Part shown: positions 1 through 41,632 of the stretch, piece by piece
Position numbering within the stretch: position 1 is the first letter of the stretch
How the letters are laid out: every line of letters begins with the position of its first letter
Origin: a virus
Lineage: Duplodnaviria; Heunggongvirae; Uroviricota; Caudoviricetes
IMG/VR virus record: IMGVR_UViG_2579778554_000004
Strand: one strand, 5' to 3'
Length of the DNA stretch: 41,632 bases
Position numbers and translations under genes: made by a program
The notes under the pieces: generated by a model
The model's database searches: none
Seen by the model: the letters and a program-made list of their open reading frames with translations, nothing else
Told to the model about the DNA's origin: nothing

Positions 1-516
1 ATGAAATTTAAAAAATGTCTTCTGCCTGTGGCAATGTTAGCGTCATTCACTCTGGCAGGATGCCAGTCAAATGCTGATGATCATGCCGCCGATGTTTATC
101 AAACCGATCAACTGAATACCAAACAAGAAACTAAAACCGTTAATATTATTTCCATTCTTCCCGCAAAAGTTGCCGTAGACAACGCCCAAAATAAACGAAA
201 TGCACAAGCCTTCGGCGCGCTTATTGGTGCAGTCGCTGGCGGTGTAATCGGCCACAACGTGGGGTCTGGCAGCAATTCCGGAACGACGGCAGGTGCAGTT
301 GGCGGCGGAGCTGTTGGCGCGGCAGCGGGTTCTATGGTGAATGATAAAACCTTAGTGGAAGGTGTTTCTCTAACGTATAAGGAAGGCACCAAAGTGTATA
401 CCTCCACCCAGGTGGGTAAAGAGTGCCAGTTTACGACAGGTTTAGCCGTTGTTATTACCACGACGTATAACGAAACGCGTATTCAGCCAAATACGAAATG
501 TCCTGAAAAGAGCTAA
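1..516 (+). CDS. Outer-membrane lipoprotein, glycine-zipper (YcfJ/SlyB/17-kDa antigen-like); probable host gene or phage cargo
   Basis: Signal peptide with lipobox LAGC; Gly-zipper GALIGAVAGGVIGHNVGSG recalled as similar to E. coli YcfJ. Confidence 0.7.
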   Translation: MKFKKCLLPVAMLASFTLAGCQSNADDHAADVYQTDQLNTKQETKTVNIISILPAKVAVDNAQNKRNAQAFGALIGAVAGGVIGHNVGSGSNSGTTAGAVGGGAVGAAAGSMVNDKTLVEGVSLTYKEGTKVYTSTQVGKECQFTTGLAVVITTTYNETRIQPNTKCPEKS

Positions 517-2389: not shown

Positions 2390-2687
2390 GTTTAGACCTC
2401 GATATTTTGAAAATATGAACAACGTTACCGCGTGTTTTAATAACCGCGGCAAGCATGACAGCGTTGATAATGACCTCAGATAAATCCACAGCCATTGGCG
2501 TGCGTAACCAGATTGCATAGACGACACGAACAGGAATACTTGCCGCAGCAACAATAAGGAAATAAGCAAGCCACCCTCCCCATCTTCGATGTTGAGAGCC
2601 GTTACGCCGGAATGTGACAACGCGAATTGCTATGCCAGTACAAATAACTGCATTGGTGATAAGCAAAAAAAACTCATGCGTTACCAT
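2379..2687 (-). CDS. Holin-like small membrane protein
   Basis: About 3 predicted TM segments; immediately upstream of and overlapping endolysin start. Confidence 0.6.
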   Translation of the reverse strand: MVTHEFFLLITNAVICTGIAIRVVTFRRNGSQHRRWGGWLAYFLIVAAASIPVRVVYAIWLRTPMAVDLSEVIINAVMLAAVIKTRGNVVHIFKISRSKHGD

Positions 2688-3078
2688 CGTCTTTTCTCCC
2701 CGGAATTAACTCGCGTGGATTATCGGAACGGTGATAGAGCCAGATGCCAATACGCACGGCGACAATTGCTGACACGAATGCGCCTGCAGAGAAAACAATC
2801 CCTTTTTCAAAAGAGTCCTGCGTGATGGTAGGGATCAGGCTGGCTATGCCGATAAGAATTGATGCTGCTGGTTTGTAAAAGAGAAGGCCGCAAAGAAAGC
2901 TGAGCATCGACAGGAGCACCCGGCGACGGATGGGGTACTCTACTGCAGAGGTAACAAAAATTACCGCCCCAGCCAAAGCCCCTAAAGCAACCTCCGGAGG
3001 GACACCTGCAATAACCGCAGCAAGAGAACTAACACTAAGCCACTGATTTGAAGTTTCATTGGTTAGTTGGAATGACAT
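2674..3078 (-). CDS. Holin or antiholin-like membrane protein
   Basis: Multiple hydrophobic segments; first gene of lysis cassette downstream of tailspike. Confidence 0.55.
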   Translation of the reverse strand: MSFQLTNETSNQWLSVSSLAAVIAGVPPEVALGALAGAVIFVTSAVEYPIRRRVLLSMLSFLCGLLFYKPAASILIGIASLIPTITQDSFEKGIVFSAGAFVSAIVAVRIGIWLYHRSDNPRELIPGRKDDGNA

Positions 3079-3150
3079 AACGAAACCCGTTTATTTGCAA
3101 ACACCCTGCTTCAGGAAAAGTATACCGCGCAACAACACACCATTTACGGT

Positions 3151-5717: not shown

Positions 5718-5732
5718 TTACCTTTCAGGTAA
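5718..5732. promoter_or_regulatory. Operator-like palindrome TTACC-N5-GGTAA (site 1 of 13)
   Basis: attacctttcaggtaat; intergenic, upstream of LexA box and the 5810 gene. Confidence 0.5.
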
Positions 5733-5769: not shown

Positions 5770-5789
5770 TACTGTATAAATATACAGTT
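5770..5789. promoter_or_regulatory. LexA (SOS) box
   Basis: TACTGTATAAATATACAGTT: CTGT-N8-ACAG matching the E. coli consensus at 18 of 20 positions; 6-20 nt upstream of the next start codon. Confidence 0.65.
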
Positions 5790-5809: not shown

Positions 5810-6067
5810 ATGCAGCAGTATCACTATCCACTGGAAGAGGGATTTACCGAAAGGATTCACACGCCGGGAGGCGTCAGGTCACTGGTGGAGGGATCGCACT
5901 TGATGAAATTACTCCGGGATCTCGATAAGGATGGATTTAATGTCGATGGTCCACTTGCCGAACTGACTGCACTGATTAACTACGTCACCAGCTCACAGAT
6001 GTCTATGCGGGATCTGCAAACACATCTCGACTATTGTGCCGAACAATTACGAAAACAAACCAGATAA
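5810..6067 (+). CDS. Small SOS-box-associated protein consisting only of the domain found at the C-termini of the two antirepressor-like proteins; candidate antirepressor
   Basis: GGAG RBS 9 nt upstream of ATG 5810 (alternative ATG 5795); alignable to the C-terminal ~75 aa of the 6385 and 8152 gene products. Confidence 0.6.
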   Translation: MQQYHYPLEEGFTERIHTPGGVRSLVEGSHLMKLLRDLDKDGFNVDGPLAELTALINYVTSSQMSMRDLQTHLDYCAEQLRKQTR

Positions 6068-6070
6068 GGT

Positions 6071-6099
6071 TTGTAATTACCAAGTGGAGTGCTTATATT
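6071..6099 (+). promoter_or_regulatory. Sigma70-like promoter (TTGTAA-17-TATATT) abutting an operator
   Basis: -35 6071-6076, -10 6094-6099, operator palindrome 6099-6113 immediately downstream. Confidence 0.45.
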
Positions 6100-6384
6100 T
6101 ACCTTTGCGGTAAATTTACACCGCACTCCTCTTGTGCCATAGTAATCGGGCACTGGCAAAATCCAGTGCCGGGATTGGTCTCCCGGATTACTAAGTGGCG
6201 CATACCACGCCAGACGTGGTTTTTTTATGCGTATAGCACAGTCATGCCAGAATTATGGTGGGCTGAATGGGGGTCCGAAAGGACGCCGGTACCACTTAGG
6301 CCGGTAAGACCAACTCCGTTCAGTTCACCACCATCTGATTGGTCTCAGCGGTGGTGATGTAATTCGCTAAGTGGAGACGCCATC
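6099..6384 (+). repeat. Left copy of duplicated ~285-nt structured leader (operator, hairpins, intrinsic terminator, pre-RBS hairpin) upstream of the antA-like gene
   Basis: Reverse-complement match to 8848-9131 with compensatory substitutions in stems; begins with TTACCTTTGCGGTAA. Confidence 0.75.
6204..6226 (+). terminator. Intrinsic terminator or attenuator inside the leader
   Basis: ACCACG-ccaga-CGTGGT followed by TTTTTT; alternative pairing GGCG/CGCC upstream could compete. Confidence 0.55.
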
Positions 6385-7041
6385 ATGAACGCTCAACTCA
6401 TCCCCGTATTCAACGGCACTATCGCCAACGAAACCACTCTTCTCGTTAATGCTCGCGATTTACATACTTTTCTTGGGGTAGGTAAACGCTTTGCATCGTG
6501 GATTACAGAACGCATTGCTGAATATGGTTTCGTTGAAAATCAGGACTATATTTTGGTTTCCCCAAATCGGGAAATCAAAGGTCGAGGAGGCGATCGCCGT
6601 AGCAAAGACTATCACCTCACCCTCGATACGGCCAAAGAAACTGCGATGGTCGAGCGCAACGAAAAAGGCCGCCAGATACGCCGATACTTCATTGAATGCG
6701 AGAAACGTTTAAGACAACAAGAAACAAAGGTGGAGAAGGTCTTGTCAGGCTTCATGCCCGCCATTATGGAGGCGATCAAGCTGGAAGACAAAAAAGAATA
6801 CAGTGCCCCACTGAAGCCCGGCTACCGCAGTCTGATTCACTCGCCGTCGGGTGTTCTCGGCCTGACGGAGAACTCACTGCTGATGAATCTGCTGAACCAG
6901 TTACAGGAAGACGGGCACGACGTATCGGGCGCGGCGGCGGAGCTGACCACCATGTTCTGCTACATCGTCGGTGTGAGCAAATGCCTGCGTGATATCCAGA
7001 CCCACGCGGAGTACATCAACGACAAGGCAGGGTTCTTCTGA
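6385..7041 (+). CDS. Antirepressor-like protein, AntA/AntB-type N-terminal domain plus shared C-terminal domain
   Basis: ARDLHTFLGVGKRFASWITERIAEYGFVENQDY pattern; C-terminal ~85 aa near-identical to C-terminus of the 8152-8847 product. Confidence 0.8.
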   Translation: MNAQLIPVFNGTIANETTLLVNARDLHTFLGVGKRFASWITERIAEYGFVENQDYILVSPNREIKGRGGDRRSKDYHLTLDTAKETAMVERNEKGRQIRRYFIECEKRLRQQETKVEKVLSGFMPAIMEAIKLEDKKEYSAPLKPGYRSLIHSPSGVLGLTENSLLMNLLNQLQEDGHDVSGAAAELTTMFCYIVGVSKCLRDIQTHAEYINDKAGFF

Positions 7042-7060
7042 CGGCGGCGGCACAGGGACG
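6789..7060. repeat. Inner inverted repeat, left copy (3' end of antA-like gene)
   Basis: Near-identical by eye to reverse complement of 8132-8394. Confidence 0.8.
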
Positions 7061-7076
7061 TGCAAAACGAAACTAT

Positions 7077-7090
7077 CGTGACATGTCACA
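7077..7090. promoter_or_regulatory. Conserved 14-mer CGTGACATGTCACA (copy 1 of 3)
   Basis: Identical 14-mer also at 27323-27336 and 29541-29554; contains palindrome GTGACATGTCAC. Confidence 0.4.
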
Positions 7091-7114
7091 GGCCGCTTTC
7101 GCGGCCTTGTTTTT
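7091..7114 (+). terminator. Intrinsic terminator after antA-like gene
   Basis: GGCCGC-tttc-GCGGCC followed by TTGTTTTT. Confidence 0.6.
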
Positions 7115-7345
7115 AACGAATGCCACCGCCGCCTGGGCGGGAATCCGCAGAACGCCCACCGCAGCGGGAGCCGTCAGCGGCAGTATCGCTGTCGTGCTGA
7201 CAACGACCGGCAAAGGCCTGAGTTGAAGCTACCAGAGACAACAAAACGAACAGTGCAGCAAATGCTTTTTTCATTGTGAAATTTCCATCTATAAGCCACC
7301 TCAATGTGGCGTCAATGAGTGTAGCACTGACTTTTGTTTCGTCCA

Positions 7346-7368
7346 CAAAAAAGCCCGCGCTGCGGGCT
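7346..7368 (-). terminator. Intrinsic terminator for the 210-aa gene
   Basis: Hairpin GCCCG-cgctg-CGGGC immediately after stop at 7373, followed on minus strand by U-run (A-tract 7346-7351 on plus). Confidence 0.65.
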
Positions 7369-7372
7369 TCTA

Positions 7373-8005
7373 TTAATGCAGTTTATCTTTGCTTATAACC
7401 AGTAGTCTGTGGGTATGCACATCTTTATCACTGCCCCAACAGAAATCAGCCCACTGGCTATAGAAATCATCCCATGATGTCATGAAGCTAAGAGGTCTAT
7501 CTTCTTCAGAGCCATCTGAAACGTATACATTATATCCTGGGGTGTTTATAGCCCAAGAAATCATTCTTTCCCAGAATCTTCTCCCATCGATTGTTTGTTG
7601 CTCATCAGATACAACGATCGCATATTGCTCTAGGAAGAACTGAAAAAAAATCTGAGGCAAACCATGAACAGCACGGTCATGAATAACATTAGGCGTACGC
7701 CATACCATGATCTGCGTACATGTTCTTTTGGCTTCGACGATATCTTCCCGAAAGATTAACTTAACCGCATACACCGTTTCTGGAGTATCGCTGGTAGTAA
7801 TCATTCTGTAATGATCGCCATTACAAGATTTTACAAGGCGATAACCATAAGGTGTTGTGAATCCCGGAAGAACGAAATCAACCACACCTTTCGCTAAGTA
7901 GCTTTCGGTGTGACTAGTGTTCTTCTCAGACATGTTCAGTTTTCTATCGAAATCTGCTTCTGGGATAATGTATGGCATCGCTTTTCTTGTTGTATTTGTT
8001 CTCAT
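7373..8005 (-). CDS. Hypothetical 210-aa cytoplasmic protein, orphan accessory gene (no family recognised)
   Basis: Strong SD GGGAGG before ATG; own operator-bearing upstream region and own terminator; AT-richer than flanks by eye. Confidence 0.75.
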   Translation of the reverse strand: MRTNTTRKAMPYIIPEADFDRKLNMSEKNTSHTESYLAKGVVDFVLPGFTTPYGYRLVKSCNGDHYRMITTSDTPETVYAVKLIFREDIVEAKRTCTQIMVWRTPNVIHDRAVHGLPQIFFQFFLEQYAIVVSDEQQTIDGRRFWERMISWAINTPGYNVYVSDGSEEDRPLSFMTSWDDFYSQWADFCWGSDKDVHTHRLLVISKDKLH

Positions 8006-8064
8006 TTCGTCCTCCCATGTTTGGCTACAGGACGCGTTTTGAAGGGAAGATTAAAAATGCTTTC

Positions 8065-8079
8065 TTACCCTTGAGGTAA
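8065..8079. promoter_or_regulatory. Operator-like palindrome TTACC-N5-GGTAA (site 3)
   Basis: ttacccttgaggtaa, about 60 bp upstream of the 210-aa gene start. Confidence 0.5.
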
Positions 8080-8131
8080 TAGTACGCTATTCACCCCCAG
8101 TCTGCAATCTGTACAGAATTATTTAAAGGCA

Positions 8132-8394
8132 CATCCCTGTGCCGCCGCCCGTCAGAAGAACCCTGCCTTGTCGTTGATGTACTCCGCGTGCGTCTGGATA
8201 TCACGCAGGCATTTGCTCACACCGACGATGTAGCAGAACATGGTGGTCAGTTCCGCCGCCGCGCCCGATACGTCGTGCCCGTCTTCCTGTAACTGGTTCA
8301 GCAGATTCATCAGCAGTGAGTTCTCCGTCAGGCCGAGAACACCCGACGGCGAATGAATCAGGCTGCGGTAGCCGGGCTTCAGCGGGGCACTGTA
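8132..8394. repeat. Inner inverted repeat, right copy (3' end of bro-like gene)
   Basis: Reverse complement matches 6789-7060 with only a few mismatches. Confidence 0.8.
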
Positions 8395-8847
8395 GGTTTT
8401 GTTCTCTATCTTCATCGCCTGCATTACTGCTGACGCCGTGGCGTTGGCTACCTGGTCGGCAACCATCTTTATGCGTTCTTCCTGCGGGAGCGAGTTTTTA
8501 ATGTAACTTCCGGTGCGGCGGATCTGAGGAAGAACCTCACCTGTAACCCATTTACGAAAGCGGTATGGGATAGTGCCTGGTGTCACCGCATCGCGGCAGC
8601 GGAGGATCAGTGTGTAGAGGCCTGACTCGGAGATAATGATCGATTCTTGCTCACCGCCAGGGGTGTCGGTTGAAGCGACGCCCTTCTCATCATCATCAAG
8701 TTTTCGAACAGCATCTCGATGGTTTGCTATGCCTATAGCCCGACAAACATCTGAAGCGATAAACCATGGCTCACCATTAATGACGATTACCCGTATATCG
8801 GCTTGAGATTCGAAAGAAAAAATGGACGTGCTTTTTGTAGCTGTCAT
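8152..8847 (-). CDS. Antirepressor-like protein, Bro-N/P22-Ant-type N-terminal domain plus shared C-terminal domain
   Basis: N-terminus IRVIVINGEPWFIASDVCRAIG typical of Bro-N/Ant; C-terminus identical to antA-like C-terminus. Confidence 0.8.
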   Translation of the reverse strand: MTATKSTSIFSFESQADIRVIVINGEPWFIASDVCRAIGIANHRDAVRKLDDDEKGVASTDTPGGEQESIIISESGLYTLILRCRDAVTPGTIPYRFRKWVTGEVLPQIRRTGSYIKNSLPQEERIKMVADQVANATASAVMQAMKIENKTYSAPLKPGYRSLIHSPSGVLGLTENSLLMNLLNQLQEDGHDVSGAAAELTTMFCYIVGVSKCLRDIQTHAEYINDKAGFF

Positions 8848-9131
8848 AGTGGTTACCTTTTAGTCTGGTTAATCACCACTACCGACGCCAATCGGTTGGT
8901 GGTGAACTGTGCAGGGTTGGCGTAACCGGCTAAAAGGACCCGGCGCACCTTTCGGTGCCCCCACACAGCCCACCATAATACGAATGTGGCCGTGCTATAC
9001 GCATAAAAAAACCGCTTGCGCGGTGAATGCGCCTTTTAGTAATCCGGGACGCCAATCCCGGCACTGGATTTTGCCAGTGCCCGATTACTATGGCACAAGA
9101 GGAGTGCGGTGTAAATTTACCGCAAAGGTAA
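8848..9131 (-). repeat. Right copy of duplicated structured leader, upstream of the bro-like gene
   Basis: Reverse complement of 6099-6384; operator TTACCGCAAAGGTAA at 9117-9131; terminator hairpin ACCGC-ttgc-GCGGT plus A-run 9005-9024. Confidence 0.75.
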
Positions 9132-9278
9132 TGATAGACACAGACAAACATTAAAATCAACCATATTTGGTTAATGTGTGTAAAAGAGCCAGCAGCGAGA
9201 AATTGTGCCGCGACGTAAAATAACGAGCATCTGCTGGCTTACAACCAGCGATGTTTCAAATTTGTCACTACTATCAAC

Positions 9279-18017: not shown

Positions 18018-20488
18018 CAGAATCCCCCAACAGTAAGGCGAGGAATAACGGCAAGAACAGACAGCGGCAACGGATCAAGCTGACGGATTTTTACACGTCC
18101 GTTTTTGCCCCAGTTACTGTCCAGTTTCACTTCTACTTTTCCGGTAGCATCATCAACAGGATCATCGTAGAACTCGAATTCACGCTGTGGATATTCGTAC
18201 CATTTACCGCCGGGCGTAGTCGCCCAGATGCCGCGACTGGCATTCACAACCAGAGTAACGGACGGGATCACCTGTTTTTTGTCCAGCAGCGTTTCCTGTC
18301 CGTTAATGTTGATATCCAGTGTTTCGAATTCAGCAGTTATTGGCAGGCCGATGTGCACTACAGCCCCCGGAGATTCCAGCGTGACGGCACCTCCGGAAAC
18401 CACTTTCTGTGGTTCCACGTTCGCATCAGAGAGGATGTTTACGGTCTGGCCTTCAAGATGAGACAAGCCGCCAAATGTCCGGCGCGCCATCTGCCAGTTC
18501 GTGGTGGCCACATTCCTGAGGGATGGCGGGACGTTCCTGTTAGCACGAACCACTACAGCGGTATTGCTGGTTACAGAAATAATGTCGCAACGTAATTCTT
18601 TTGACACTTCATCGCCAGTATCAGGATCAGTTCCGGTATAAGGGAACTGTAGTTGCGCGCCGACATCACTACTGGTGAAGTACGCACCACCAGAAACACT
18701 GATTGTATATTCCGCATGGTAATCCCATTCACCAGAACCACCAGTGATGGTCATCGTTCTGTCAGACGTATTTCTTCCATCATAGCTAAGGCCAGAATCA
18801 ACAAAGAAAGCATCTTCATCGCTGGTAAATAAACGGCTGGACAGTCGCTCGATGTATCTCACTGTTTGCCCGTTAACGGTTCGGTTAACGACGAAATACA
18901 CCGCATCTTCATTGCCTTCGCTGATACTGCATGTGCTTTCATATTTTCCGGTACTGGATTGTGGTGCCCATGCAAAAACCTGCTGATCACGCAAATAGGT
19001 CATCACCAGTAATTTACCGTCATCACGAATGCAGAAGGCACTGGAGTAAGGGACAATCGAGAAGCACCAGTCAACAATGCTGTGCTTCTGAAAAAGATGA
19101 TTGGCAAGGATGGTCAGGTCGTTCCCCTGATAGCCGTCAACATCGAATGAGTAGGCCAGATCACGGACAACGCTGCCTTTCTCCTGGACGAACAGAGCAA
19201 TATTCGCCACGGCAATTGGCGGGACGTTGCTTGAGCCATTTGATCCCTGAGAGCTGAATGCAAATGATGATGGGGTTAACACTTTGTTCTGGTCGCCGGT
19301 GATGACGTACTCACCTCCGGAAGTCAGCGCCACCAGAGAACCAACATCAATCAGGTGGCGGATCTCATTAACCTGACGTCCGGCATAGGTGTAGATAATT
19401 CTGTCGTCATCCTGCGTAGGATTGCTTTTGCCAAAATCCTTATAATCCCCGGTACGGCTGGCCCAGATAGTCTGAGGAAACGCAGTCGATGCGGCGAAGT
19501 AAAGACGTTGTTGATAATAAACAACAGTGCCAGGATAACCATTAACACTGTTCCAGGCATATTTAGCCCATTTATAGCTGGCATTATCCTCGCCAACGAC
19601 CTGCGAAGGGATATAGGAAATCACCTCAGCAGTTGCAGTAGTGCCATTTGCAGCAGTGATACGGGCAATGCCAAAACCACTGTGCAGATACTCCCACTCA
19701 ATGCCAGTATCATCATCACCGGATCCGCCCCAGCCATCCCATGATGTGCCTTCTGTATGCGAAGGGCGCAAAGTACCTGTTTTGCCTGCTGTAACGGCGC
19801 GATAGTAGTTACTGTCTGCACGGCGAATATCGCCAATCGACGTACTCTTACTGGTTTCCCATACCGGCACAGAATCCACTGCAGGCTGTTCCAGATAGAA
19901 CAATTTGCCTACCTGCTCCGCGCCAAAAATAGAGGCGCTTGCCGTTAACGTAATTGTCCCGGTGCTGGCGCTGGCATAAACCGTCACTGACTCGTCAATA
20001 TTGATATCTTCAAATGGCCCGTTCTTCGTTACCACATCAACCAGTTGCCAGTTGTCATGCGCATAGCGGCGCAACTCTTTCGGCGGGTATGCCGGATGAA
20101 CCAGCGTAAGCACGTCTGCGCTTTGCGTGAATTTAATTCGGAACAGATCGGCTTCAGTATATGGCGTGGAAATTTCATAAATAACATTGCTGCTGTTCAG
20201 CACCAACGCACCATCTTTGATAACGCGCATGTACTGGTGTCCGAACTCCAGAGCATAGGTCTGAACCGTCGAGAACTGGAACGGGATCAGGCGGCATTTC
20301 CGATTTGGGTATTTGGCGGCACCGACAAAACGCGTACCAGGTCGATTCTCAACGCCGCCATACTGCCGCACGATAAAGTTATCGCACTTGCGCAATGCCA
20401 CCTGGTACTTCGCCATGTCGATACGACCGTACAACGACGGTCCAATCTCACCACCGGCAAAGCTGGGCTGTATCCAACTGATAGCCAT
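18017..20488 (-). CDS. Tail tubular protein B-like (nozzle), 823 aa
   Basis: Size (T7 gp12 is ~794 aa) and position after tube A-like gene. Confidence 0.75.
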   Translation of the reverse strand: MAISWIQPSFAGGEIGPSLYGRIDMAKYQVALRKCDNFIVRQYGGVENRPGTRFVGAAKYPNRKCRLIPFQFSTVQTYALEFGHQYMRVIKDGALVLNSSNVIYEISTPYTEADLFRIKFTQSADVLTLVHPAYPPKELRRYAHDNWQLVDVVTKNGPFEDINIDESVTVYASASTGTITLTASASIFGAEQVGKLFYLEQPAVDSVPVWETSKSTSIGDIRRADSNYYRAVTAGKTGTLRPSHTEGTSWDGWGGSGDDDTGIEWEYLHSGFGIARITAANGTTATAEVISYIPSQVVGEDNASYKWAKYAWNSVNGYPGTVVYYQQRLYFAASTAFPQTIWASRTGDYKDFGKSNPTQDDDRIIYTYAGRQVNEIRHLIDVGSLVALTSGGEYVITGDQNKVLTPSSFAFSSQGSNGSSNVPPIAVANIALFVQEKGSVVRDLAYSFDVDGYQGNDLTILANHLFQKHSIVDWCFSIVPYSSAFCIRDDGKLLVMTYLRDQQVFAWAPQSSTGKYESTCSISEGNEDAVYFVVNRTVNGQTVRYIERLSSRLFTSDEDAFFVDSGLSYDGRNTSDRTMTITGGSGEWDYHAEYTISVSGGAYFTSSDVGAQLQFPYTGTDPDTGDEVSKELRCDIISVTSNTAVVVRANRNVPPSLRNVATTNWQMARRTFGGLSHLEGQTVNILSDANVEPQKVVSGGAVTLESPGAVVHIGLPITAEFETLDININGQETLLDKKQVIPSVTLVVNASRGIWATTPGGKWYEYPQREFEFYDDPVDDATGKVEVKLDSNWGKNGRVKIRQLDPLPLSVLAVIPRLTVGGF

Positions 20489-22250: not shown

Positions 22251-22301
22251 CTTCTTTCTCCATTAGTGGGTCTGTTACGACCCACAGGTTAATAACAGGC
22301 G

Positions 22302-26284: not shown

Positions 26285-26299
26285 TTACCTTTCAGGTAA
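26285..26299. promoter_or_regulatory. Operator-like palindrome TTACC-N5-GGTAA (site 5)
   Basis: ttacctttcaggtaa at the start of the tRNA/moron insertion. Confidence 0.5.
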
Positions 26300-26621: not shown

Positions 26622-26698
26622 GTGGCATTAGCTCAGTTGGACAGAGCAACCGCCTTCTAAGCGGTTGGTCGCAGGTTCGAATCCTGCATGCCACGCCA
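26622..26698 (+). tRNA. tRNA-Arg, anticodon UCU (reads AGA), CCA encoded
   Basis: Cloverleaf by hand: acceptor GTGGCAT/ATGCCAC, D-arm GCTC..GAGC, anticodon stem ACCGC/GCGGT with loop CTTCTAA, T-arm GCAGG-TTCGAAT-CCTGC, discriminator G plus CCA. Confidence 0.9.
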
Positions 26699-28838: not shown

Positions 28839-29509
28839 TGATTACCATCCTGACGTTCTTTGAGTCGCTTCCTGGCTGCTGCTATGCGATCAGCAATTGT
28901 CACATTCACATTAACATCCAGACGTTCTTTGAATGCGTTGACATCAACATGCTTACCAATCAGCTCAAGGTTCTTCACCTTGTCAGGCCATTTAATTTTT
29001 TTGAGGATTGTCTCTATTGAATCCTCGTTCATGTTCATGATGGTCGATGACAGATCAAAGCCACTAAGCGTAGTGCGCCAGATTTTCGGCCACTCACGGA
29101 TTGGTTTAAGGCTCCCATCGTCGTTGAGGATGTCGATCACGTCCATCTGGTCGATCTCCACCAGGCGCATGAGAACGTAATCAGCACTGACACGCATTCG
29201 TTTGTTGCGCTCCTCCATCAACTCGGCAATCCGTTTCTGAATGCGTTCATCGCGCATCATGACACTGGCTTTAACTGCCGCTGTATTTGGGGAGAATCCT
29301 GCGTTAATCGCAGCCTGAGTCTGGTTTTCAGGCGTTTTGATGTATGACTGGCAATAAGCCTCCTGCATTGCTGTGAGCGGCTTAAATTGCGTTGATTTGC
29401 GTTTATAGGTTTTAGGTTCAGCAGGCATCATAACTACCGTGGTAATTGTTACCGTTGTGGTAATAATACCATGCAAAATAAAGCCGCCATAGTTGGCGGC
29501 AGTATTCAA
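28835..29509 (-). CDS. Terminase small subunit (true start may be the internal Met pair near 29431)
   Basis: Immediately upstream of and overlapping large subunit; basic helical N-terminal region. Confidence 0.7.
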   Translation of the reverse strand: MNTAANYGGFILHGIITTTVTITTVVMMPAEPKTYKRKSTQFKPLTAMQEAYCQSYIKTPENQTQAAINAGFSPNTAAVKASVMMRDERIQKRIAELMEERNKRMRVSADYVLMRLVEIDQMDVIDILNDDGSLKPIREWPKIWRTTLSGFDLSSTIMNMNEDSIETILKKIKWPDKVKNLELIGKHVDVNAFKERLDVNVNVTIADRIAAARKRLKERQDGNQ

Positions 29510-33121: not shown

Positions 33122-33466
33122 TCAGAACTCTTCGATTTTCCATCCGCCACCTGCTTTCTTTGGCTTAACAGTTACCCCGATGATTCGGAACGGATATTGA
33201 TCTGCGGCGACTTTGGTTTTCACCCTGGCGTCGTCGGTCCAGAAACCTTTCACTTCGTGCAGTTCCATCTCTCCGGTGGCGAGCATCACAGCGAAATCTG
33301 GCGTATAGAACGTGTTATCAGCTAACCGCAGCTTGATACCCTCGAATCGATACCAGGCGATTTCCCCTGCACGTTTACGCAGCTCAAGGTGCTGGCAATA
33401 CACAGATTCTGTTTTGTTCATCTGGCCTGTTTTGAGTCGACCAAGAGCCTGTATCTGTTTTCTCAT
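33122..33466 (-). CDS. Hypothetical protein (DUF1064-like, common in lambdoid nin regions)
   Basis: 114-aa ORF downstream of P-like gene; family from memory. Confidence 0.55.
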   Translation of the reverse strand: MRKQIQALGRLKTGQMNKTESVYCQHLELRKRAGEIAWYRFEGIKLRLADNTFYTPDFAVMLATGEMELHEVKGFWTDDARVKTKVAADQYPFRIIGVTVKPKKAGGGWKIEEF

Positions 33467-33469
33467 GAT

Positions 33470-33484
33470 TTACCCCTGAGGTAA
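33470..33484. promoter_or_regulatory. Operator-like palindrome TTACC-N5-GGTAA (site 6)
   Basis: ttacccctgaggtaa. Confidence 0.5.
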
Positions 33485-33551
33485 TTAAAAACCACATAAG
33501 ACACGAAATCAATAGAGTTTAGAATATTTTATTACCCAACAGGTAATTATC

Positions 33552-35180: not shown

Positions 35181-35355
35181 TCTTTAGTGCACAAGCAAAT
35201 TCATTACGATGGCGGTTGGCGCTATTCATTGCACATTCAACACATGTTCCGTTCAGAACATACCTTTCAGAGAGATGGCCGTGACGGCACCGCTTTCCTG
35301 TGAAATAGCGATTTAACCCGGCTTTTGCGGCCTCCATTCTGGTTACTATCTTCAA
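35143..35355 (-). CDS. Small zinc-ribbon protein (cII position); putative regulator
   Basis: C-x-H...C-x2-C cluster; position after Cro-like gene. Confidence 0.5.
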   Translation of the reverse strand: MKIVTRMEAAKAGLNRYFTGKRCRHGHLSERYVLNGTCVECAMNSANRHRNEFACALKSARGETYGKQLD

Positions 35356-35433
35356 TTTTTCCGCCCCTTTTTGTTATTGATATTGGCTATTTTGCACAAT
35401 TGGAAAATTTGATCAACCAGATTTGGTTTTTTA

Positions 35434-35448
35434 TTACCTTTGAGGTAC
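35434..35448. promoter_or_regulatory. Operator-like palindrome, imperfect (TTACC-N5-GGTAC) (site 8)
   Basis: ttacctttgaggtac. Confidence 0.4.
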
Positions 35449-35503
35449 GAATAGATATGAAAAGACCGCCGGGTGGCGGTCTACAGAGGGTTGTAGCTGG
35501 ATA

Positions 35504-35734
35504 TCATGAGTAGAAGAAGTATGCCAGTTCTGCTTTTGAGCGCAGCCATTGTCTTGTTTTACAGGCTTTAAAAAGCCCATTCATCAATACTTTACCTGGC
35601 ATTTTGCGCTTACCTGTTAAGTGAGTCTGGATATAGTGACTCGTCGTTCCGGCTTCCTGTGCGAAGGCTTCACGCTCATCCGGAGTAAGTGCAAGCCAGT
35701 GCTTTTTGAAATCGAAATGTCCGTTATCGCTCAT
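35504..35734 (-). CDS. Cro-like small DNA-binding regulator
   Basis: 76 aa; divergent from repressor gene across an operator cluster; first gene of the replication-side operon. Confidence 0.6.
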   Translation of the reverse strand: MSDNGHFDFKKHWLALTPDEREAFAQEAGTTSHYIQTHLTGKRKMPGKVLMNGLFKACKTRQWLRSKAELAYFFYS

Positions 35735-35770
35735 AGCTATTGCCTGATATTTATTTCAGATAATAAATAT

Positions 35771-35833
35771 TCACCCATAAGGTAACAAAAATCAAGGATA
35801 GTTACCCATGAGGTGCATTTACCTGTTGGGTAA
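35771..35833. promoter_or_regulatory. Immunity-region operator cluster: three tandem palindromes (sites 9-11) between Cro-like and repressor genes
   Basis: tCACCcataaGGTAA 35771-35785, TTACCcatgaGGTgc 35802-35816, TTACCtgttgGGTAA 35819-35833. Confidence 0.6.
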
Positions 35834-35888
35834 TATTGCTTTAAATTGAATCATCTACTGATTCATATATGAGGCGATTTTCCAGAAA

Positions 35889-36473
35889 ATGAAAAGTATC
35901 CAGGACGTCCGCAGGCAAAATCTCAACGACTTGATCGACCGTGAATTCAATGGTGTTCAGACGCGGATGGCAGAAAAACTTGGAACTCAGGCAAATCTGG
36001 TAAACCGCTGGGCTCTTGGCAAGAAGGTTATCGGCGACCAGGTTGCGCGAAAAATTGAAGCTGCCGCCAATAAACCACGTAACTGGCTTGATATCGATCG
36101 CTCGCTTTCTCAGGAAGGTTTTCAGCCTGTCGGCCCAAGCGACATTGGTCAGCTGGCGGCTCACAACCTGGAACGCTGGATGAGCGAAAGCCGCGACCTT
36201 TCAACTCAGGGAAAACTTCACCGCGCATCCGGCGTCGCCCAGGTGACAATCAGCCGCCTGTTAAACAATGAGGTCAGTGTTTCCATTTCCACCCTGGAGA
36301 ATGTTGCATCAGCATTCGGGCGTCACGGCTATGAATTACTGATTCACCCGCACGACCCTGCGACCATCAACTATGACCGCTCGCGCTACGCATTGTTACC
36401 CGAAACCGAGAAAGCAAAGATCGAAAGTTACATTGAATTTGTCATCAACCAGAACGAAAAAAACAAACAATAA
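35889..36473 (+). CDS. Prophage repressor (CI-like), tandem HTH domains, no autocleavage domain
   Basis: Two XRE-type HTH regions; no Ser-Lys peptidase motif seen; divergent from Cro-like gene. Confidence 0.75.
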   Translation: MKSIQDVRRQNLNDLIDREFNGVQTRMAEKLGTQANLVNRWALGKKVIGDQVARKIEAAANKPRNWLDIDRSLSQEGFQPVGPSDIGQLAAHNLERWMSESRDLSTQGKLHRASGVAQVTISRLLNNEVSVSISTLENVASAFGRHGYELLIHPHDPATINYDRSRYALLPETEKAKIESYIEFVINQNEKNKQ

Positions 36474-36493
36474 AATCATATTTTTCAGTAAGT

Positions 36494-36517
36494 AAGCCGC
36501 CTTCTGGCGGCTTTTTT
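36494..36517 (+). terminator. Intrinsic terminator after repressor gene
   Basis: GCCGCC-ttct-GGCGGC followed by TTTTTT. Confidence 0.75.
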
Positions 36518-36530
36518 ATTGCCTATACTA

Positions 36531-36607
36531 TTACCTAATGGGTAATTTTTTTAACTCATATCTATTGACATCAAACCAAATACGCATAATTATTACCTCA
36601 ACGGTAA
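36531..36607 (+). promoter_or_regulatory. Early promoter region for the recombination operon: TTGACA -35 (36565-36570) flanked by two operator palindromes
   Basis: Palindromes 36531-36545 and 36593-36607; AT-rich -10 candidates 36585-36593; GAGGT RBS follows. Confidence 0.55.
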
Positions 36608-36626
36608 CAGACCGAGGTAACAAGTT

Positions 36627-36779
36627 ATGCAGTGGAAAATCATCAACGGTTGGTACTGCGTTACTGCATGCGGATTCATGAGCTGGAAGTTCCGCACCTT
36701 ACAGGAAGGCATTAAGTGGGCTTTCGTCAGCAAAGAAGCTCGCGATGTGGCCAACGATAACGAGATATGGGAGGGCTGA
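36627..36779 (+). CDS. Hypothetical small protein (50 aa), first ORF of the recombination operon
   Basis: GAGGT RBS 7 nt upstream of ATG; below the ORF-track length threshold. Confidence 0.35.
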   Translation: MQWKIINGWYCVTACGFMSWKFRTLQEGIKWAFVSKEARDVANDNEIWEG

Positions 36780-36781
36780 TA

Positions 36782-37081
36782 ATGAACGTTAATCAGCAGA
36801 AAAATCTTCAAAAAATCATGCTGGCATTCGACAAGGACTACCGCCTGTCAGAACAGCTATATGACCGACAAGTTGAACTGATCGAGAGCATCCGGCTTCA
36901 TCAACTGGCCTCAACTTTCGACGCTGTAACAGGTAAAGGCGTTCGCCAGGAAGTACTGGAGGCCGCTAAAGACAGTCCAGAGTTCGAAGAACTGATGGAT
37001 TCCTACCGGCGAGAGGCAATGGCAATTATCGCCCGCTGGGATCTGGCTGATCAGCTTGATGGGCAGAGGGACGCGGCATGA
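36782..37081 (+). CDS. Hypothetical protein
   Basis: ATG 36782 two nt after upstream stop; stop overlaps exonuclease start. Confidence 0.55.
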   Translation: MNVNQQKNLQKIMLAFDKDYRLSEQLYDRQVELIESIRLHQLASTFDAVTGKGVRQEVLEAAKDSPEFEELMDSYRREAMAIIARWDLADQLDGQRDAA

Positions 37082-37899
37082 AACCGGGAATTTATTTCGA
37101 CATCAGCAACGAAGACTACCACGCCGGTGACGGCGTGAGTAAGTCGCAACTGGACATGGTTGCCAAGAATCCGGCGCTTCTTAAATGGGTTCAGGCAGCA
37201 CCAGAAGACGAAGAGAAAAAGTCTGCACTGGATATGGGAACCGCATTGCACTGTCTGCTTCTGGAGCCTGGAGAGTTCGACAAACGCTTCATTGTTTCAC
37301 CGAAATTCGAACGTCGGACGAAACAAGGTAAAGCTGACGAAGAGGCATTTCTTCGTGATATTGCGGATATGGGGATTTCGGTACTTGATGCAGAGCAGTG
37401 GCGGAAACTGGAGCTGATGCGTGATAGCGCAATGGCTCACCCGGCGGCACGCTGGATGTTGGAAGCACCTGGTTACTGCGAAGCATCAATGTACTGGAAC
37501 GATGAAGAGACGGGGGAGTTGTGCCGAATTCGTCCAGACAAATGGCTGAACGAGCACAACGTGATCGTCGACGTGAAAAAGGTTGCAGATATGGACCGTT
37601 TTGCACGCCACATCGAGGAATTCCGCTACCACGTGCAGGACGCAATGTACCGCGAAGGCGCAATGAGGGTTACTGGTCAGCCGCATGGTTTTTTCTTTCT
37701 TGCCGTGAGCGAAAGCATTGATTGTGGTCGGTATCCGGTACGCGTGTTCGAGCTGGATGCGCAGGATGTCGATGCCGGGCACGCTCTGTTCCGCCGGGAT
37801 CTGAATACCTATCACGAATGCCGCATCAATGATGAATGGGGCGGTGTGGAAATCATTAAACGCCCTGAGTGGGCACGCAAACAGGATATGTACATATGA
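37078..37899 (+). CDS. Putative recombination exonuclease, PD-(D/E)XK superfamily
   Basis: IRPD...IVDVKKV motif consistent with PD-(D/E)XK; paired with RecT-like gene. Confidence 0.7.
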   Translation: MKPGIYFDISNEDYHAGDGVSKSQLDMVAKNPALLKWVQAAPEDEEKKSALDMGTALHCLLLEPGEFDKRFIVSPKFERRTKQGKADEEAFLRDIADMGISVLDAEQWRKLELMRDSAMAHPAARWMLEAPGYCEASMYWNDEETGELCRIRPDKWLNEHNVIVDVKKVADMDRFARHIEEFRYHVQDAMYREGAMRVTGQPHGFFFLAVSESIDCGRYPVRVFELDAQDVDAGHALFRRDLNTYHECRINDEWGGVEIIKRPEWARKQDMYI

Positions 37900-38837
37900 G
37901 CAACGACATCGCAAACATCAACGCACCAGTAGACACAGCAATCGCTGGAACTGCTGCAACTATTTTCAGCCCAGACGGCTTGAACCAACTGATGAAATTC
38001 GCCGAGGTAATGGCGCAAAGCCGCGTAACGGTACCGGCGCACCTCGCCGGGAAACCAGCTGATTGCATGGCCGTGGCAATGCAGGCTGCGCAGTGGGGAA
38101 TGAACCCGTTTGCCGTGGCTCAGAAAACCCATGTTGTGAACGGCACGCTAGGTTATGAAGCCCAATTAGTAAACGCAGTTATCTCAACGATGTCGCCAAC
38201 AAAAGATCGCATCAACTACGAGTGGTTCGGGCCGTGGGAACGCGTGATCGGTAAGTTTGTTGAGAAAACATCCAAAAACGGCAATCCATATATCGCACCA
38301 GGCTGGACTCTAAAAGACGAAGAAGGCTGCGGTGTTCGCGTATGGGCAACCATGAAGGGCGAGGATCAACCTCGAGTGCTTGAGTTAATGCTGTCTCAAG
38401 CACAGGTAAGAAACTCCACACTTTGGGCCAGTGATCCGAAACAACAACTCGCATACCTTGCGACAAAACGCTGGTCTCGCTTGCACTGTCCTGACGTAAT
38501 CATGGGCGTCTACACCCCTGACGAATTACAGGAAACGGCACCGCGCGTTGAGCGAGACATTACTCCGCAAACGACCACTGCTGCGGGAATGAACAGTCTG
38601 ATCAACGCTAAACCAGTGAAAAAGCCTGATGAGCAAACGCGTAAAGCGGATAGCCGTGATCCAGAAGAAATGCTGATGGCCTTTACCAGCGCAGCGATGA
38701 ATTACAGCACTGTCTCCGAACTGGATAAGGCTTACAAATACATTGAACAGAAACTTTCAGATGATGACGAACTGCTGGCAAAAGCCACCGACGTTTACAG
38801 CGTTCGTCGGGAAGAATTAAACGAAACATCTATGTAA
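37896..38837 (+). CDS. RecT/Bet-family single-strand annealing recombinase
   Basis: AAQWGMNPF motif comparable to lambda Bet QYGLNPW; ATGA overlap with exonuclease stop. Confidence 0.75.
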   Translation: MSNDIANINAPVDTAIAGTAATIFSPDGLNQLMKFAEVMAQSRVTVPAHLAGKPADCMAVAMQAAQWGMNPFAVAQKTHVVNGTLGYEAQLVNAVISTMSPTKDRINYEWFGPWERVIGKFVEKTSKNGNPYIAPGWTLKDEEGCGVRVWATMKGEDQPRVLELMLSQAQVRNSTLWASDPKQQLAYLATKRWSRLHCPDVIMGVYTPDELQETAPRVERDITPQTTTAAGMNSLINAKPVKKPDEQTRKADSRDPEEMLMAFTSAAMNYSTVSELDKAYKYIEQKLSDDDELLAKATDVYSVRREELNETSM

Positions 38838-40381: not shown

Positions 40382-41632
40382 TTATTCCCCCGCCATCCAC
40401 TTCTCAAACTTCGACGGGGAGAACGGAATCAGATCCGTATGCTCCCCGTTAATCCAGGAATCAATCATATCGGCCCACTGCTGCAACATGTAGGCGCGCT
40501 GTCTGGCGTATTCCGCTTTGTTATATACGGCGCGCACACCTTTCTGCTCATGTGCCAGAGCCTTTTCAATCCAGTCTGAAGGATAACCAGCCTCATGCAA
40601 CAACGTACTGGCTGTACGGCGCATATCGTGTACGGTGAAGCCCTGAATATGCTCACCATCTTCATTTATTATTTTCACCGTTCTGTCGATCAGAGAGTTC
40701 AGCGCGGCATTAGATAATGGCTTCCGGAAATTGTAACGACCAGGAACCAGATATTCACTTCCACCAGCGCACATCTGCAACCCAACCAATATATCCTGTG
40801 CCTGTTTAGGCAGGTAAATAACGTGCGCCCGGCTTCCCTTCATGCGGTCTGAAGGAATTGTCCATGTCCATTTTTTAAAATCTATTTCATCCCACGTTGC
40901 ATTGGTGAATTCGCCTTTACGAACCATAGTGATAAGCACCAGCTTTAAAGCCATTTTCATAGTGCCCATAGCACCAATGGCATCCAGCGTGCGGAAGAAC
41001 AGACCAATTTCTTCTGGTGTCAGTGTTCGCTCTCGTGGTTTAAATATGGCGATAGACGAAGGTTTAATGTCAGCCGCAGGATTAAACAAACCATGACCAC
41101 GGTCATTGGCATGACGGTATACGCTGCTGATGATCTCCCTGGCCTGCACTGCTGTTGCCCGGCCGCCGCGTTCGACAATCCGGTCACACAAATCACGAAC
41201 CATCGATGTGGTAATTTCAGTCATCATTTTGTTGCCAAGAACCGGAAGTATGTCACGGTCGATCACCACCTGCTTCATTGCGCGGGTACTGTCAGCTAGG
41301 ATGACATGTTTCATATAACTGTCGGTATGTACCGCAAACGTCTCGGCACCACGAATCTTTTTGATACCGTCACGTTTAGCCGCAGCCGGTGACTGGCCTG
41401 CTTTAAGCAGCTTCTTTGCAGCAATCAGTTCTTCTCGCGCTTCTGCCAGGCTGATACCGTCACGCCCATACTGCCCGATTACCAGTGTTTCGCGGCGACC
41501 GTTGATACGGTAGTCATAGCGAAACGAGACCGTGCCTGACGTAAGCACAGCTACATACAGCCCGTCACGATCGGAGACCTTGTACAGTTTGTCCTGCGGC
41601 TTGAGGTTTTTTAATTTTGTATCGGTAAGCAC
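40382..41632 (-). CDS. Tyrosine integrase (P4-type N-terminal arm-binding domain), 5'-partial at window edge
   Basis: N-terminal LTDTKLKNLKPQDKLYKVSDRDGLYV pattern; C-terminal catalytic region with HxxR-like and Tyr motifs; reading frame begins at last base of window. Confidence 0.9.
   Translation of the reverse strand: MLTDTKLKNLKPQDKLYKVSDRDGLYVAVLTSGTVSFRYDYRINGRRETLVIGQYGRDGISLAEAREELIAAKKLLKAGQSPAAAKRDGIKKIRGAETFAVHTDSYMKHVILADSTRAMKQVVIDRDILPVLGNKMMTEITTSMVRDLCDRIVERGGRATAVQAREIISSVYRHANDRGHGLFNPAADIKPSSIAIFKPRERTLTPEEIGLFFRTLDAIGAMGTMKMALKLVLITMVRKGEFTNATWDEIDFKKWTWTIPSDRMKGSRAHVIYLPKQAQDILVGLQMCAGGSEYLVPGRYNFRKPLSNAALNSLIDRTVKIINEDGEHIQGFTVHDMRRTASTLLHEAGYPSDWIEKALAHEQKGVRAVYNKAEYARQRAYMLQQWADMIDSWINGEHTDLIPFSPSKFEKWMAGE

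Follow-up and report, generated by a model that had tools for sequence, protein, structure and literature searches.

A phiV10-type Uetakevirus lysis-lysogeny switch that is probably orthologous to the Rep/Ant repressor-antirepressor system of SPC32H

The window analysed here, a whole stretch of 41,632 nt of virus DNA, derives from a Uetakevirus (epsilon15/phiV10-like) whose lysis-lysogeny switch is, very probably, of the phiV10 type and an orthologue of the Rep/Ant switch of Salmonella phage SPC32H. Range 35504-36473, at its centre, comprises a 76-aa Cro-like gene and, across 154 bp of divergent intergenic DNA, the 194-aa ORF of the immunity repressor, Rep (Table 1). A switch built from a repressor and an antirepressor is a known type: the SPC32H mechanism, its proteins and the crystal structure of the complex were reportedly published by Kim & Ryu in 2013 (J Virol 87:11775) and by Kim et al. 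in 2016 (PNAS 113:E2480). The SPC32H Rep is said not to be cleaved and the LexA box to overlap the ant promoter, while Ant reportedly binds the C-terminal oligomerisation region of the repressor and does not compete for its DNA-binding surface. The system therefore carries little weight as a discovery, since the SPC32H mechanism is known and the identical repressor has both an annotation in phiV10 and experimental tests in ZX5 behind it.

Table 1. Features of the switch and of related sites, in window coordinates (residue numbers for the Rep domains)
Feature	Position	Strand	Remarks
Perfect operator-type site	5718..5732		Tailspike-ant intergenic region; ~54 bp upstream of LexA box
LexA box CTGTATAAATATACAG	5772..5787	+	Near-consensus; 22 bp before ATG at 5810
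ant, small 85-aa antirepressor	5810..6067	+	Divergent from tailspike gene
Leader of AntA-type gene	6099..6335	+	Operator-type site 6099-6113, isrK 6150-6226, C4 6251-6335
Large antirepressor-like gene, AntA type	6385..7041	+	AntA N-terminal domain, Ant-like C-terminal 80 aa
Perfect operator-type site	8065..8079		Directly after TTGCAG-17-TACTAT, upstream of 7373-8005 gene
Large antirepressor-like gene, Bro-N type	8152..8847	-	Bro-N domain, same Ant-like C-terminal 80 aa
Leader of Bro-N-type gene	8895..9131	-	Operator-type site 9117-9131, isrK 9080-9005, C4 8980-8895
Perfect operator-type site	26285..26299		Between tRNA-Arg gene and head-gene block
Operator-type pair	29431..29463		29449 (perfect) and 29431 (2 mismatches), spacing 18 bp; directly before small-terminase start
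Two perfect operator-type sites	33470..33546		62 bp apart; between replication gene and DUF1064 gene
Cro-like 76-aa gene	35504..35734	-	Transcribed away from rep; homologous to phiV10 p41, epsilon15 gp39 and SPC32H_042
Putative operator O1 TCACCCATAAGGTAA	35771..35785		1 mismatch; in spacer of leftward PR-like promoter
Putative operator O2 TTACCCATGAGGTGC	35802..35816		2 mismatches; 31 bp from O1
Putative operator O3 TTACCTGTTGGGTAA	35819..35833		Perfect; 17 bp from O2
rep, 194-aa immunity repressor	35889..36473	+	ORF call, Pfam, PDB, AF2 fold
Intrinsic terminator after rep	36494..36513	+	Terminator annotated at equivalent phiV10 place
Putative PL-like early promoter with flanking operators	36531..36607	+	Promoter scan, TTGACA-17-AATTAT (36565-36593); perfect sites 36531-36545 and 36593-36607, 62 bp apart
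Rep N-terminal XRE-type DNA-binding domain	residues ~1-72		Followed by linker; naming per PMC9986798
Rep second HTH-like middle (dimerisation) domain	residues ~89-152		Naming per PMC9986798
Rep C-terminal tetramerisation/Ant-binding module	residues ~153-194		Naming per PMC9986798

In the mechanism that we propose, a non-cleavable Rep would bind DNA through its N-terminal domain, dimerise through the middle one and use its C-terminal part for both tetramerisation and Ant binding, so that its oligomers would occupy TTACC-N5-GGTAA palindromes at the divergent PR/PRM-like promoters, the PL-like promoter and several other transcription-unit starts. In the lysogen, host LexA would occupy the SOS box that overlies the promoter of ant, the small gene adjoining the tailspike gene. 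DNA damage would then lead, through RecA-stimulated LexA cleavage, to Ant synthesis, and Ant, on engaging the C-terminal part of Rep, would disassemble the DNA-binding oligomer, free the operators and permit lytic transcription. Three points we infer from SPC32H: the escape of Rep from cleavage, its binding by Ant and the oligomeric states that the two adopt.

Rep is 100% identical to p40 of Escherichia phage phiV10 (DQ126339) and to ORF21 of vB_EcoP_ZX5 (MW722083), both annotated as repressors, the former as a 'putative transcriptional repressor, two helix-turn-helix motifs'. Searched against the PDB with phmmer, it matched the SPC32H Rep over its full length (5D50_A, residues 1-190, E=4e-42), and residues 89-190 matched 5D4Z (E=4e-20); identity to the SPC32H protein is 42% overall, with 53% in the DNA-binding domain, 34% in the middle domain and 47% in the C-terminal module. 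Pfam placed HTH_3 on two stretches (best 106-147), together with an N-terminal YdaS/HTH match at 21-61, and the AlphaFold2 (AF2) model folds into two helical domains (4-59 and 83-151) followed by a C-terminal helix, bearing out the two XRE-type HTH regions described in the initial annotation. The passages of PMC9986798 on SPC32H Rep, which cite Kim et al. 2016, assign DNA binding to the N-terminal domain, dimerisation to the middle HTH-like region and tetramerisation and Ant binding to the last ~40 residues (the DBD/MDD/CAD scheme). The "tandem HTH" description holds for sequence and fold, with the second HTH described as the dimerisation domain (PMC9986798); as a domain picture it was incomplete, having missed the C-terminal tetramerisation/Ant-binding module.

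The same annotation saw nothing resembling the LexA/CI peptidase domain, and the domain searches agree with it. Pfam gave no Peptidase_S24 match in Rep even at E<=1, NCBIfam gave no match to LexA/CI models, and the LexA/CI C-terminal fold was absent from the PDB fold matches of the AF2 model; the top Foldseek matches in the PDB were all 5D50/5D4Z chains, and the other significant ones were small XRE-type HTH proteins. Rep resembles lambda CI, P22 C2 and LexA in its XRE-type N-terminal HTH, and the locus resembles theirs in its divergent repressor and cro genes with three operators between them, but the combination that defines the lambda CI/LexA type, a C-terminal S24 Ser-Lys peptidase preceded by a linker with an Ala-Gly-type cleavage site, is not found in Rep, for which inactivation by protein binding is proposed instead. 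Induction of the lambda type, by RecA-stimulated self-cleavage of Rep and with the LexA-box gene merely incidental, would agree with the SOS inducibility of phiV10-type prophages: ZX5, with its identical Rep, is inducible by mitomycin C (PMC9782041), and a microcin that damages DNA induces phiV10-species prophages (bioRxiv 10.64898/2026.05.26.727859). Inducibility alone, however, does not separate the two mechanisms, whereas the missing peptidase fold, the three SPC32H Rep domains that account for the whole length of Rep, and the SPC32H work being cited among antirepressor-induced prophages in a section of the review PMC7380047 leave lambda-type induction almost certainly wrong.

The 154-bp region between rep and the Cro-like gene contains three 15-bp inverted repeats of the form TTACC-N5-GGTAA, with 0, 1 and 2 mismatches, as the initial annotation had proposed in placing three operator palindromes there. 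Chance alone would give ~12 sites with <=2 mismatches in 41.6 kb, or ~0.05 in 154 bp. Half-sites and the 31/17-bp spacing are invariant in an alignment of this region from four phages with 42-78% identity among their repressors, and O1 is conserved in Tyrion, SPC32H and BUCT711. O1 falls within a PR-like promoter found by the scan (- strand, TTGTTA-17-TATTAT, 35788-35760), and O3 overlaps a conserved element, TTTACC-17-TTAAAT, which reads into rep, has invariant columns in the alignment and is promoter-like enough that we read it as the putative rep promoter. The arrangement of the PL region, with its 62-bp spacing, recurs in SPC32H, Tyrion and BUCT711. A pattern with a 6-bp spacer, TTACC-N6-GGTAA, yielded nothing meaningful; the spacer is 5 bp. 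As for the divergent gene, its 76-aa product matched only PHROG phrog_35 ('transcriptional repressor', E=5.6e-13), Pfam, NCBIfam and PDB searches all being without a match, and its putative Cro role is inferred from its position.

How Rep would read these palindromes bears on the function of its second HTH. Both HTH domains of one chain could in principle lie on the DNA as a pseudo-dimer, one chain per palindrome, and it is true that the best Pfam HTH_3 score falls on the second domain (106-147) and that the AF2 model contains two XRE-like helical bundles. Yet one and the same 5-mer, exactly inverted, forms both half-sites, which calls for two identical reading heads, and the Rep domains differ in their putative recognition helices. 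Besides, the N-terminal domain is the better conserved of the two (53% against 34%) across phages with the same half-site; residues 92-198 were crystallised as the oligomerisation/Ant-binding part (5D4Z), and PMC9986798 describes the middle domain as dimerising. With the same sequence in both inverted half-sites and dimerisation as the published role of the second domain, we rejected the one-chain arrangement as highly improbable. Within the N-terminal domain, N36, R40 and W41 are invariant in 29 homologues, and the stretch that holds them, aligned as NLVNRW, is read as the putative recognition helix.

The initial annotation was right about operators at the switch, but the motif is not confined to it: TTACC-N5-GGTAA occurs in perfect form in 11 places genome-wide, against 0.03 expected. 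Many sites are paired, 17-18 or 62 bp apart, and SPC32H agrees in half-sites, spacings and genome positions. There, the site in the tailspike-ant region has its equivalent at 20013 (and another in phiv142-3), the one beside tRNA-Arg at 3175, and the pair before the DUF1064 gene recurs with its spacing at 35972/36034; SPC32H terS is preceded, at 35 bp, by a perfect operator-type site. One member of the pair before the DUF1064 gene lies between TTGATA and TAAAAT hexamers (- strand); its partner sits right against the start codon at 33466. The hexamers before the 8065 site (TTGCAG-17-TACTAT) are likewise read by us as promoter-like.

Rep binding to the palindrome in this phage is predicted from sequence, and one could suppose that another regulator, Cro-like or an activator of late or early genes, is the main ligand of the palindrome and that Rep recognises something else, the more so because several sites are remote from the immunity region and two adjoin start codons and not recognisable promoters. 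Five of the sites, however, occupy the PR/PRM and PL-like promoters, as repressor operators should, these promoters have no other conserved palindrome, the half-sites remain constant together with the invariant Rep N36, R40 and W41, and Cro-type proteins normally share the operators of the repressor, so that a different main ligand is very unlikely. In a bolder and rather improbable reading, Rep may act as a genome-wide repressor, nearer to P1 C1 or mycobacteriophage L5 gp71 than to lambda CI: almost all transcription units are preceded by perfect sites whose positions are conserved, and for terS and DUF1064 such sites are right at the start codon.

The genes at 5810, 6385 and 8152, which the initial annotation had named, are all present as ORFs, and the first of them encodes the small Ant. 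This protein matched PDB 5D50_E, 'Anti-repressor protein', at E=5.6e-47 and is 86-88% identical to the SPC32H Ant, which was co-crystallised with Rep in 5D50. In PHROG it falls in phrog_450/15539/1760 only, and scans of Pfam, PHROG and NCBIfam gave no named Tum-type family, a DUF724 match being sub-threshold. Its gene appears to be under a LexA box at its promoter, where the 20-mer TACTGTATAAATATACAGTT equals the E. coli consensus at 18 of 20 positions; box and flanks align with SPC32H 19958-19973, and the position is conserved in SPC32H (CTGTATAAACATACAG), phiV10 and phiv142-3, in each case in the ant-tailspike intergenic region. Two further CTGT-N8-ACAG matches, at 22272 and 26814, have G+C-rich spacers and were treated as chance.

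Antirepressor-mediated induction through the LexA-box gene, suggested earlier for this locus, is thus supported at the sequence level, since each element has its SPC32H counterpart: Rep matches 5D50_A at E=4e-42, Ant is 86-88% identical and the LexA box is in the same place. For several Salmonella prophages, a section of the review PMC7380047, which cites Kim & Ryu 2013 among others for this LexA-antirepressor logic, describes LexA self-cleavage leading to antirepressor synthesis and to inhibition of the repressor by protein contact, and a passage of PMC9638917 has the SPC32H Rep tetramer bind DNA and an Ant tetramer bind two Rep dimers. In line with this model, ZX5 and phiV10-species prophages respond to DNA-damaging agents, and in ZX5, whose Rep is identical, Rep overexpression lowered holin and endolysin transcripts by >99.9% (PMC9782041). 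The likeness to SPC32H, a member of the same genus, extends to a three-part Rep without a peptidase domain and homologous over its full length, to a small (~86 aa) Ant homologue whose gene points away from the tailspike gene and has its LexA box in the matching place, and to the 31/17-bp and 62-bp operator spacings, the last compared sequence against sequence and not with published operator definitions. The window phage differs in its host, E. coli, and in its Rep; as the latter is only 42% identical to its counterpart and Ant 86%, the Rep-Ant contact is extrapolated for the Rep of the window phage.

A further difference is a ~3-kb module, which SPC32H lacks, of two Ant-domain fusion proteins with isrK/C4 leaders; these larger antirepressor-like genes are, as far as their sequences tell, an added feature beyond the SPC32H switch. 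The AntA-type product (Pfam AntA, E=3.6e-27; phrog_377, phrog_450) shares 39% identity with the small Ant in its C-terminal domain, and in the Bro-N-type product (Pfam Bro-N, E=2.3e-21; phrog_130, phrog_450) the Ant-like domain was recognised by alignment. Rfam identified isrK and C4 in both leaders, at 67.7 and 61.2 bits for the AntA type and 77.9 and 77.7 bits for the Bro-N type, all four above the gathering thresholds (isrK 50 bits, C4 45 bits). The AntA-type leader has a promoter-like TTTACA-17-CATAGT ending at 6143, and the Bro-N-type leader is its mirror copy, promoter-like site included; the operator-type site is centred at about -44 relative to the start of isrK. C4 antisense RNA lies directly upstream of these two genes only, not of rep or the small ant. 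Neither gene has a LexA box, and as both stand behind their own isrK/C4 leaders they constitute a separate input.

Because the phage has two further Ant-domain proteins, the small Ant may be neither the only nor the dominant inducer. Taken to its end, this would make the two large proteins the main inducers via isrK/C4, as at P1/N15 immI-type loci, with the small Ant an accessory. Both do carry the Ant-like domain behind isrK and C4, and in ZX5, where ORF21 and the Bro-N antirepressor were examined by overexpression, that of the Bro-N antirepressor ORF4 lowered lysogeny and reduced prophage titres about 1000-fold (PMC9782041). The ZX5 record matches the part of the window around the Bro-N-type gene, of which ORF4 may be the equivalent. 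Against a leading role of the large proteins, SPC32H has the small ant only (gene table) and is, in a section of PMC7380047, fully inducible through it; a frameshift within the Ant-like domain cuts the Bro-N gene of phiV10 short, but prophages of the phiV10 species can still be induced; and no LexA box serves either large gene. We consider such a role unlikely, and retain the small Ant, with its LexA box, as the probable main inducer.

More tentatively, and with more doubt than belief, the three Ant-fold outputs could be wired in series: the small Ant may be released by the SOS response, and the loss of Rep from the sites at 6099 and 9117 may then change expression of the large Ant fusions, which could fix the induced state or, in trans, affect related Uetakeviruses that are co-resident or superinfecting.

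The phages of the phiV10 group are O157 reporter and typing phages and common gut prophages. To their E. coli members the LexA-Ant-Rep annotation can be transferred with good confidence, and TTACC-N5-GGTAA offers a motif for annotating promoters under Rep control throughout the genus. LexA control and operators find no mention in the phiV10 record, the ZX5 record or the ZX5 paper (PMC9782041). Compared with phiV10 and ZX5, the window phage combines the small ant with the AntA-type and Bro-N-type genes. Among the related Uetakeviruses, the operator half-sites are common to all and Ant is highly conserved. Conservation of both across the genus makes cross-immunity and cross-induction among Salmonella, E. 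coli, Enterobacter and Klebsiella members plausible and testable.

Beyond the genus, the logic is that of the LexA-controlled antirepressors of Gifsy (GfoA/GftA), 186 (Tum) and N15 (AntC), in which a small inactivator with a LexA-repressed gene acts on a non-cleavable repressor (PMC3121763). No homology of these to the small Ant was found in the Pfam, PHROG and NCBIfam family scans or among its PDB matches, and the Gifsy repressors are 136-aa single-domain proteins (PMC3121763), unlike the 194-aa Rep. Membership of the Gifsy or 186 Tum type was rejected because Ant is in a different protein family. Meanwhile, C4 and isrK upstream of the AntA- and Bro-N-type genes recall P1/P7 immI and N15 immA, where C4/CA RNA controls ant, and Gifsy-1 isrK. 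The window phage differs from these loci in that its cassette is present twice, in opposite orientations; each copy has what appears to be a Rep-operator-type site next to its promoter and encodes an apparently SPC32H-Ant-like C-terminus.

Rep, the 194-aa immunity repressor, carries two helix-turn-helix (HTH)-type domains and, as the initial annotation had held, nothing resembling a LexA/CI-type peptidase. Pfam matched HTH_3 to two stretches (best 106-147) and a YdaS/HTH-type profile to residues 21-61, with no Peptidase_S24 match even at E<=1. In an AlphaFold2 model derived from 26 homologues (mean pLDDT 77), Rep has one helical bundle at residues 4-59, another at 83-151, and a long C-terminal helix at 172-193. 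The only strong PDB matches of the model in Foldseek were 5D50 and 5D4Z chains, followed by small XRE-type proteins, and no LexA/CI peptidase fold was among the PDB matches. The 5D50 entry is labeled "Rep-Ant complex from Salmonella-temperate phage," and in a PDB sequence search Rep residues 1-190 matched its chain A ("Repressor," 199 aa, E=4e-42), while residues 89-190 matched 5D4Z. [quoted passage not shown] The tandem HTH reading stands in part: a second HTH fold is present, yet it corresponds to the published dimerization domain, and a C-terminal module of about 40 residues had been missed.

Megablast of 35300-36700 against phage records returned Uetakevirus Escherichia phages (phiV10, TL-2011b, vB_EcoP_ZX5, phiv142-3, and others) at 97-99% identity and Enterobacter phage Tyrion at about 77%. 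By tblastn, Rep is 100% identical in at least 12 phage records, including phiV10 and ZX5, and 42% identical to the repressor of Salmonella phage SPC32H. The phiV10 counterpart, p40, is recorded as a "putative transcriptional repressor" with two helix-turn-helix motifs (PF01381), similar to the epsilon15p38 putative repressor.

Three 15-bp palindromes of the type TTACC-N5-GGTAA separate rep from the Cro-like gene (Table). When the window, Tyrion, SPC32H, and Klebsiella phage BUCT711 are aligned, the half-sites fall in invariant columns and the 31-bp and 17-bp spacings are kept, although much of the flanking sequence diverges; the three predicted palindromes are therefore confirmed, far beyond chance. 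The N-terminal domain is indicated as the DNA-reading head by three features: the half-sites repeat a single 5-mer in exact inverted orientation, conservation between phages with a common half-site is highest in this domain (53% identity; middle domain, 34%; C-terminal module, 47%), and N36, R40, and W41, in a stretch aligned as NLVNRW, are invariant across 29 homologues.

Coordinates of features at the immunity switch and elsewhere in the window
Feature	Position	Strand	Remarks
Predicted LexA box	5772-5787		CTGTATAAATATACAG
Small ant	5810-6067	+	85 aa
Extra antirepressor module	6070-9160		~3 kb; absent from SPC32H
Palindrome	6099-6113		perfect
isrK, C4 (leader of 6385 gene)	6150-6226, 6251-6335		Rfam
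AntA-N-type antirepressor-like gene	6385-7041	+	convergent with 8152-8847
77-aa ORF	7113-7346	-	signal-peptide-like N-terminus
210-aa gene	7373-8005	-	no known function; phrog_1349, E=3e-113
Palindrome	8065-8079		far from immunity region
Bro-N-type antirepressor-like gene	8152-8847	-	convergent with 6385-7041
isrK, C4 (leader of 8152 gene)	9080-9005, 8980-8895		Rfam; mirror orientation
Palindrome	9117-9131		perfect
Operator-type site	26285-26299		near tRNA-Arg gene
tRNA-Arg gene	26622-26698		anticodon TCT; inside phage, likewise in SPC32H
Operator-type pair	29431-29463		just upstream of small terminase gene
Operator-type site	33470-33484		one of two, 62 bp apart, between replication and DUF1064 genes
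Palindrome	35434-35448		far from immunity region
Cro-like gene	35504-35734	-	76 aa; homologue of phiV10 p41 and epsilon15 gp39
rep/Cro-like intergenic region			154 bp
Palindrome	35771		1 mismatch
Palindrome	35802		2 mismatches
Palindrome	35819		perfect
rep	35889-36473	+	194 aa
RecE-like gene	37078-37899		overlaps RecT-like gene
RecT-like gene	37869-38837
Integrase gene	in 40382-41632	-	416 aa

The small Ant matched 5D50 chain E ("Anti-repressor protein," E=5.6e-47) in the PDB sequence search and is 86% identical to that of SPC32H, the only other Ant compared. The SPC32H record annotates both rep and ant, and there ant and the tailspike gene diverge just as they do in the window. By eye, the two ant-tailspike regions align along their whole length, and the predicted SPC32H LexA box, CTGTATAAACATACAG, occupies the same place as that of the window; a box is likewise present in phiV10 and phiv142-3. 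Kim and Ryu reportedly found that Rep stays uncleaved in the SOS response and that the variant SPC32N owes its constitutively lytic behavior to a single altered base in the LexA box.

In several Salmonella prophages, as summarized in PMC7380047 (with Kim & Ryu 2013 as one of its sources), an antirepressor is made once LexA has cleaved itself, and it inhibits the repressor through protein-protein interaction. In the account of PMC9638917, a Rep tetramer binds DNA, with DNA-binding pairs proposed to come from different dimers, and an Ant tetramer binds two Rep dimers, breaking the Rep tetramer. By analogy, Rep oligomers would occupy the palindromes of the window and LexA would hold ant off, until DNA damage removed LexA and the Ant then made stripped Rep from DNA. 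The earlier proposal of antirepressor-mediated induction through the LexA-box gene thus gains support from the 5D50 matches and the SPC32H-like box. Observations on E. coli members lend further support: mitomycin C induces ZX5, whose Rep is identical to that of the window, and Rep overexpression there abolished free phage and lowered lysis-gene transcripts by >99.9% (PMC9782041); a DNA-damaging microcin induces phiV10-species prophages 21- to 47-fold (bioRxiv 10.64898/2026.05.26.727859).

The two larger antirepressor-like genes of the extra module are not LexA-controlled, each lying behind an isrK element and a C4 antisense RNA that score above the Rfam gathering thresholds. Over the last 80 aa their two products do not differ, and this stretch has 39% identity to the small Ant. 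phiV10 p23 (phiV10 2655-3239), a Bro-N "putative anti-immunity protein," is identical to the 8152 product until the Ant-like domain begins, inside which it departs and stops early, apparently by a frameshift. The outer palindromes (6099-6113 and 9117-9131) sit immediately 5' of the -35 of a promoter-like element that would start isrK, centered at about -44 from its 5' end, and also just after a second promoter-like -10; the -44 placement may point to activation and not repression. The 210-aa and 77-aa frames, which lie between the two antirepressor genes, follow a promoter-like element that carries an operator-type site, and may be a moron or cargo genes.

The operator motif was present at the switch as claimed but is not confined to it, the window holding 11 perfect copies against 0.03 expected. 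Beyond the tabulated pairs, a promoter (TTGACA-17-AATTAT) just 3' of the rep terminator has a site on either side, 62 bp apart, one site lies in the ant-tailspike region, and three lie in the extra module. The paired sites fit, in our view, a Rep tetramer with two DNA-binding pairs. SPC32H has its sites at equivalent positions with the same spacings, and two distant sites of the window directly adjoin start codons (terS and the DUF1064 gene), which suggests that Rep directly controls most transcription units.

In all comparisons run (Rep, Ant, the LexA box and its position, operators), the window agrees with the SPC32H Rep/Ant family; Rep falls outside the lambda/LexA-type repressors because it has no S24 domain. 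The switch would work like the Gifsy, 186 Tum, and N15 AntC systems, and profile scans of Ant revealed no relation to named Tum-type families. When the window was compared with SPC32H, Tyrion, and BUCT711, Rep proteins of the E. coli, Salmonella, and Klebsiella phages proved only 42-45% identical yet share the half-sites and the NLVNRW stretch, and cross-immunity and cross-induction inside the genus look possible. The antirepressor-switch hypothesis is well supported for the window, but its mechanism had been reported in 2013 and 2016 for another member of the genus, and E. coli phages already have Rep annotated and, in part, tested. The ZX5 paper says nothing on LexA control of the small ant (PMC9782041); this predicted control and the layering of three Ant-domain proteins are apparently undescribed so far for E. 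coli members. What remains is modest, namely the additional antirepressor module and the operator-type sites spread over the genome.

The window begins with ATG and stops exactly at the integrase start codon, which suggests a complete, permuted record of a phage or prophage, not a random genomic slice. Its RecE-like and RecT-like genes (37078-38837) are separate, as in ZX5; the phiV10 counterpart is annotated as a single fused recET gene.
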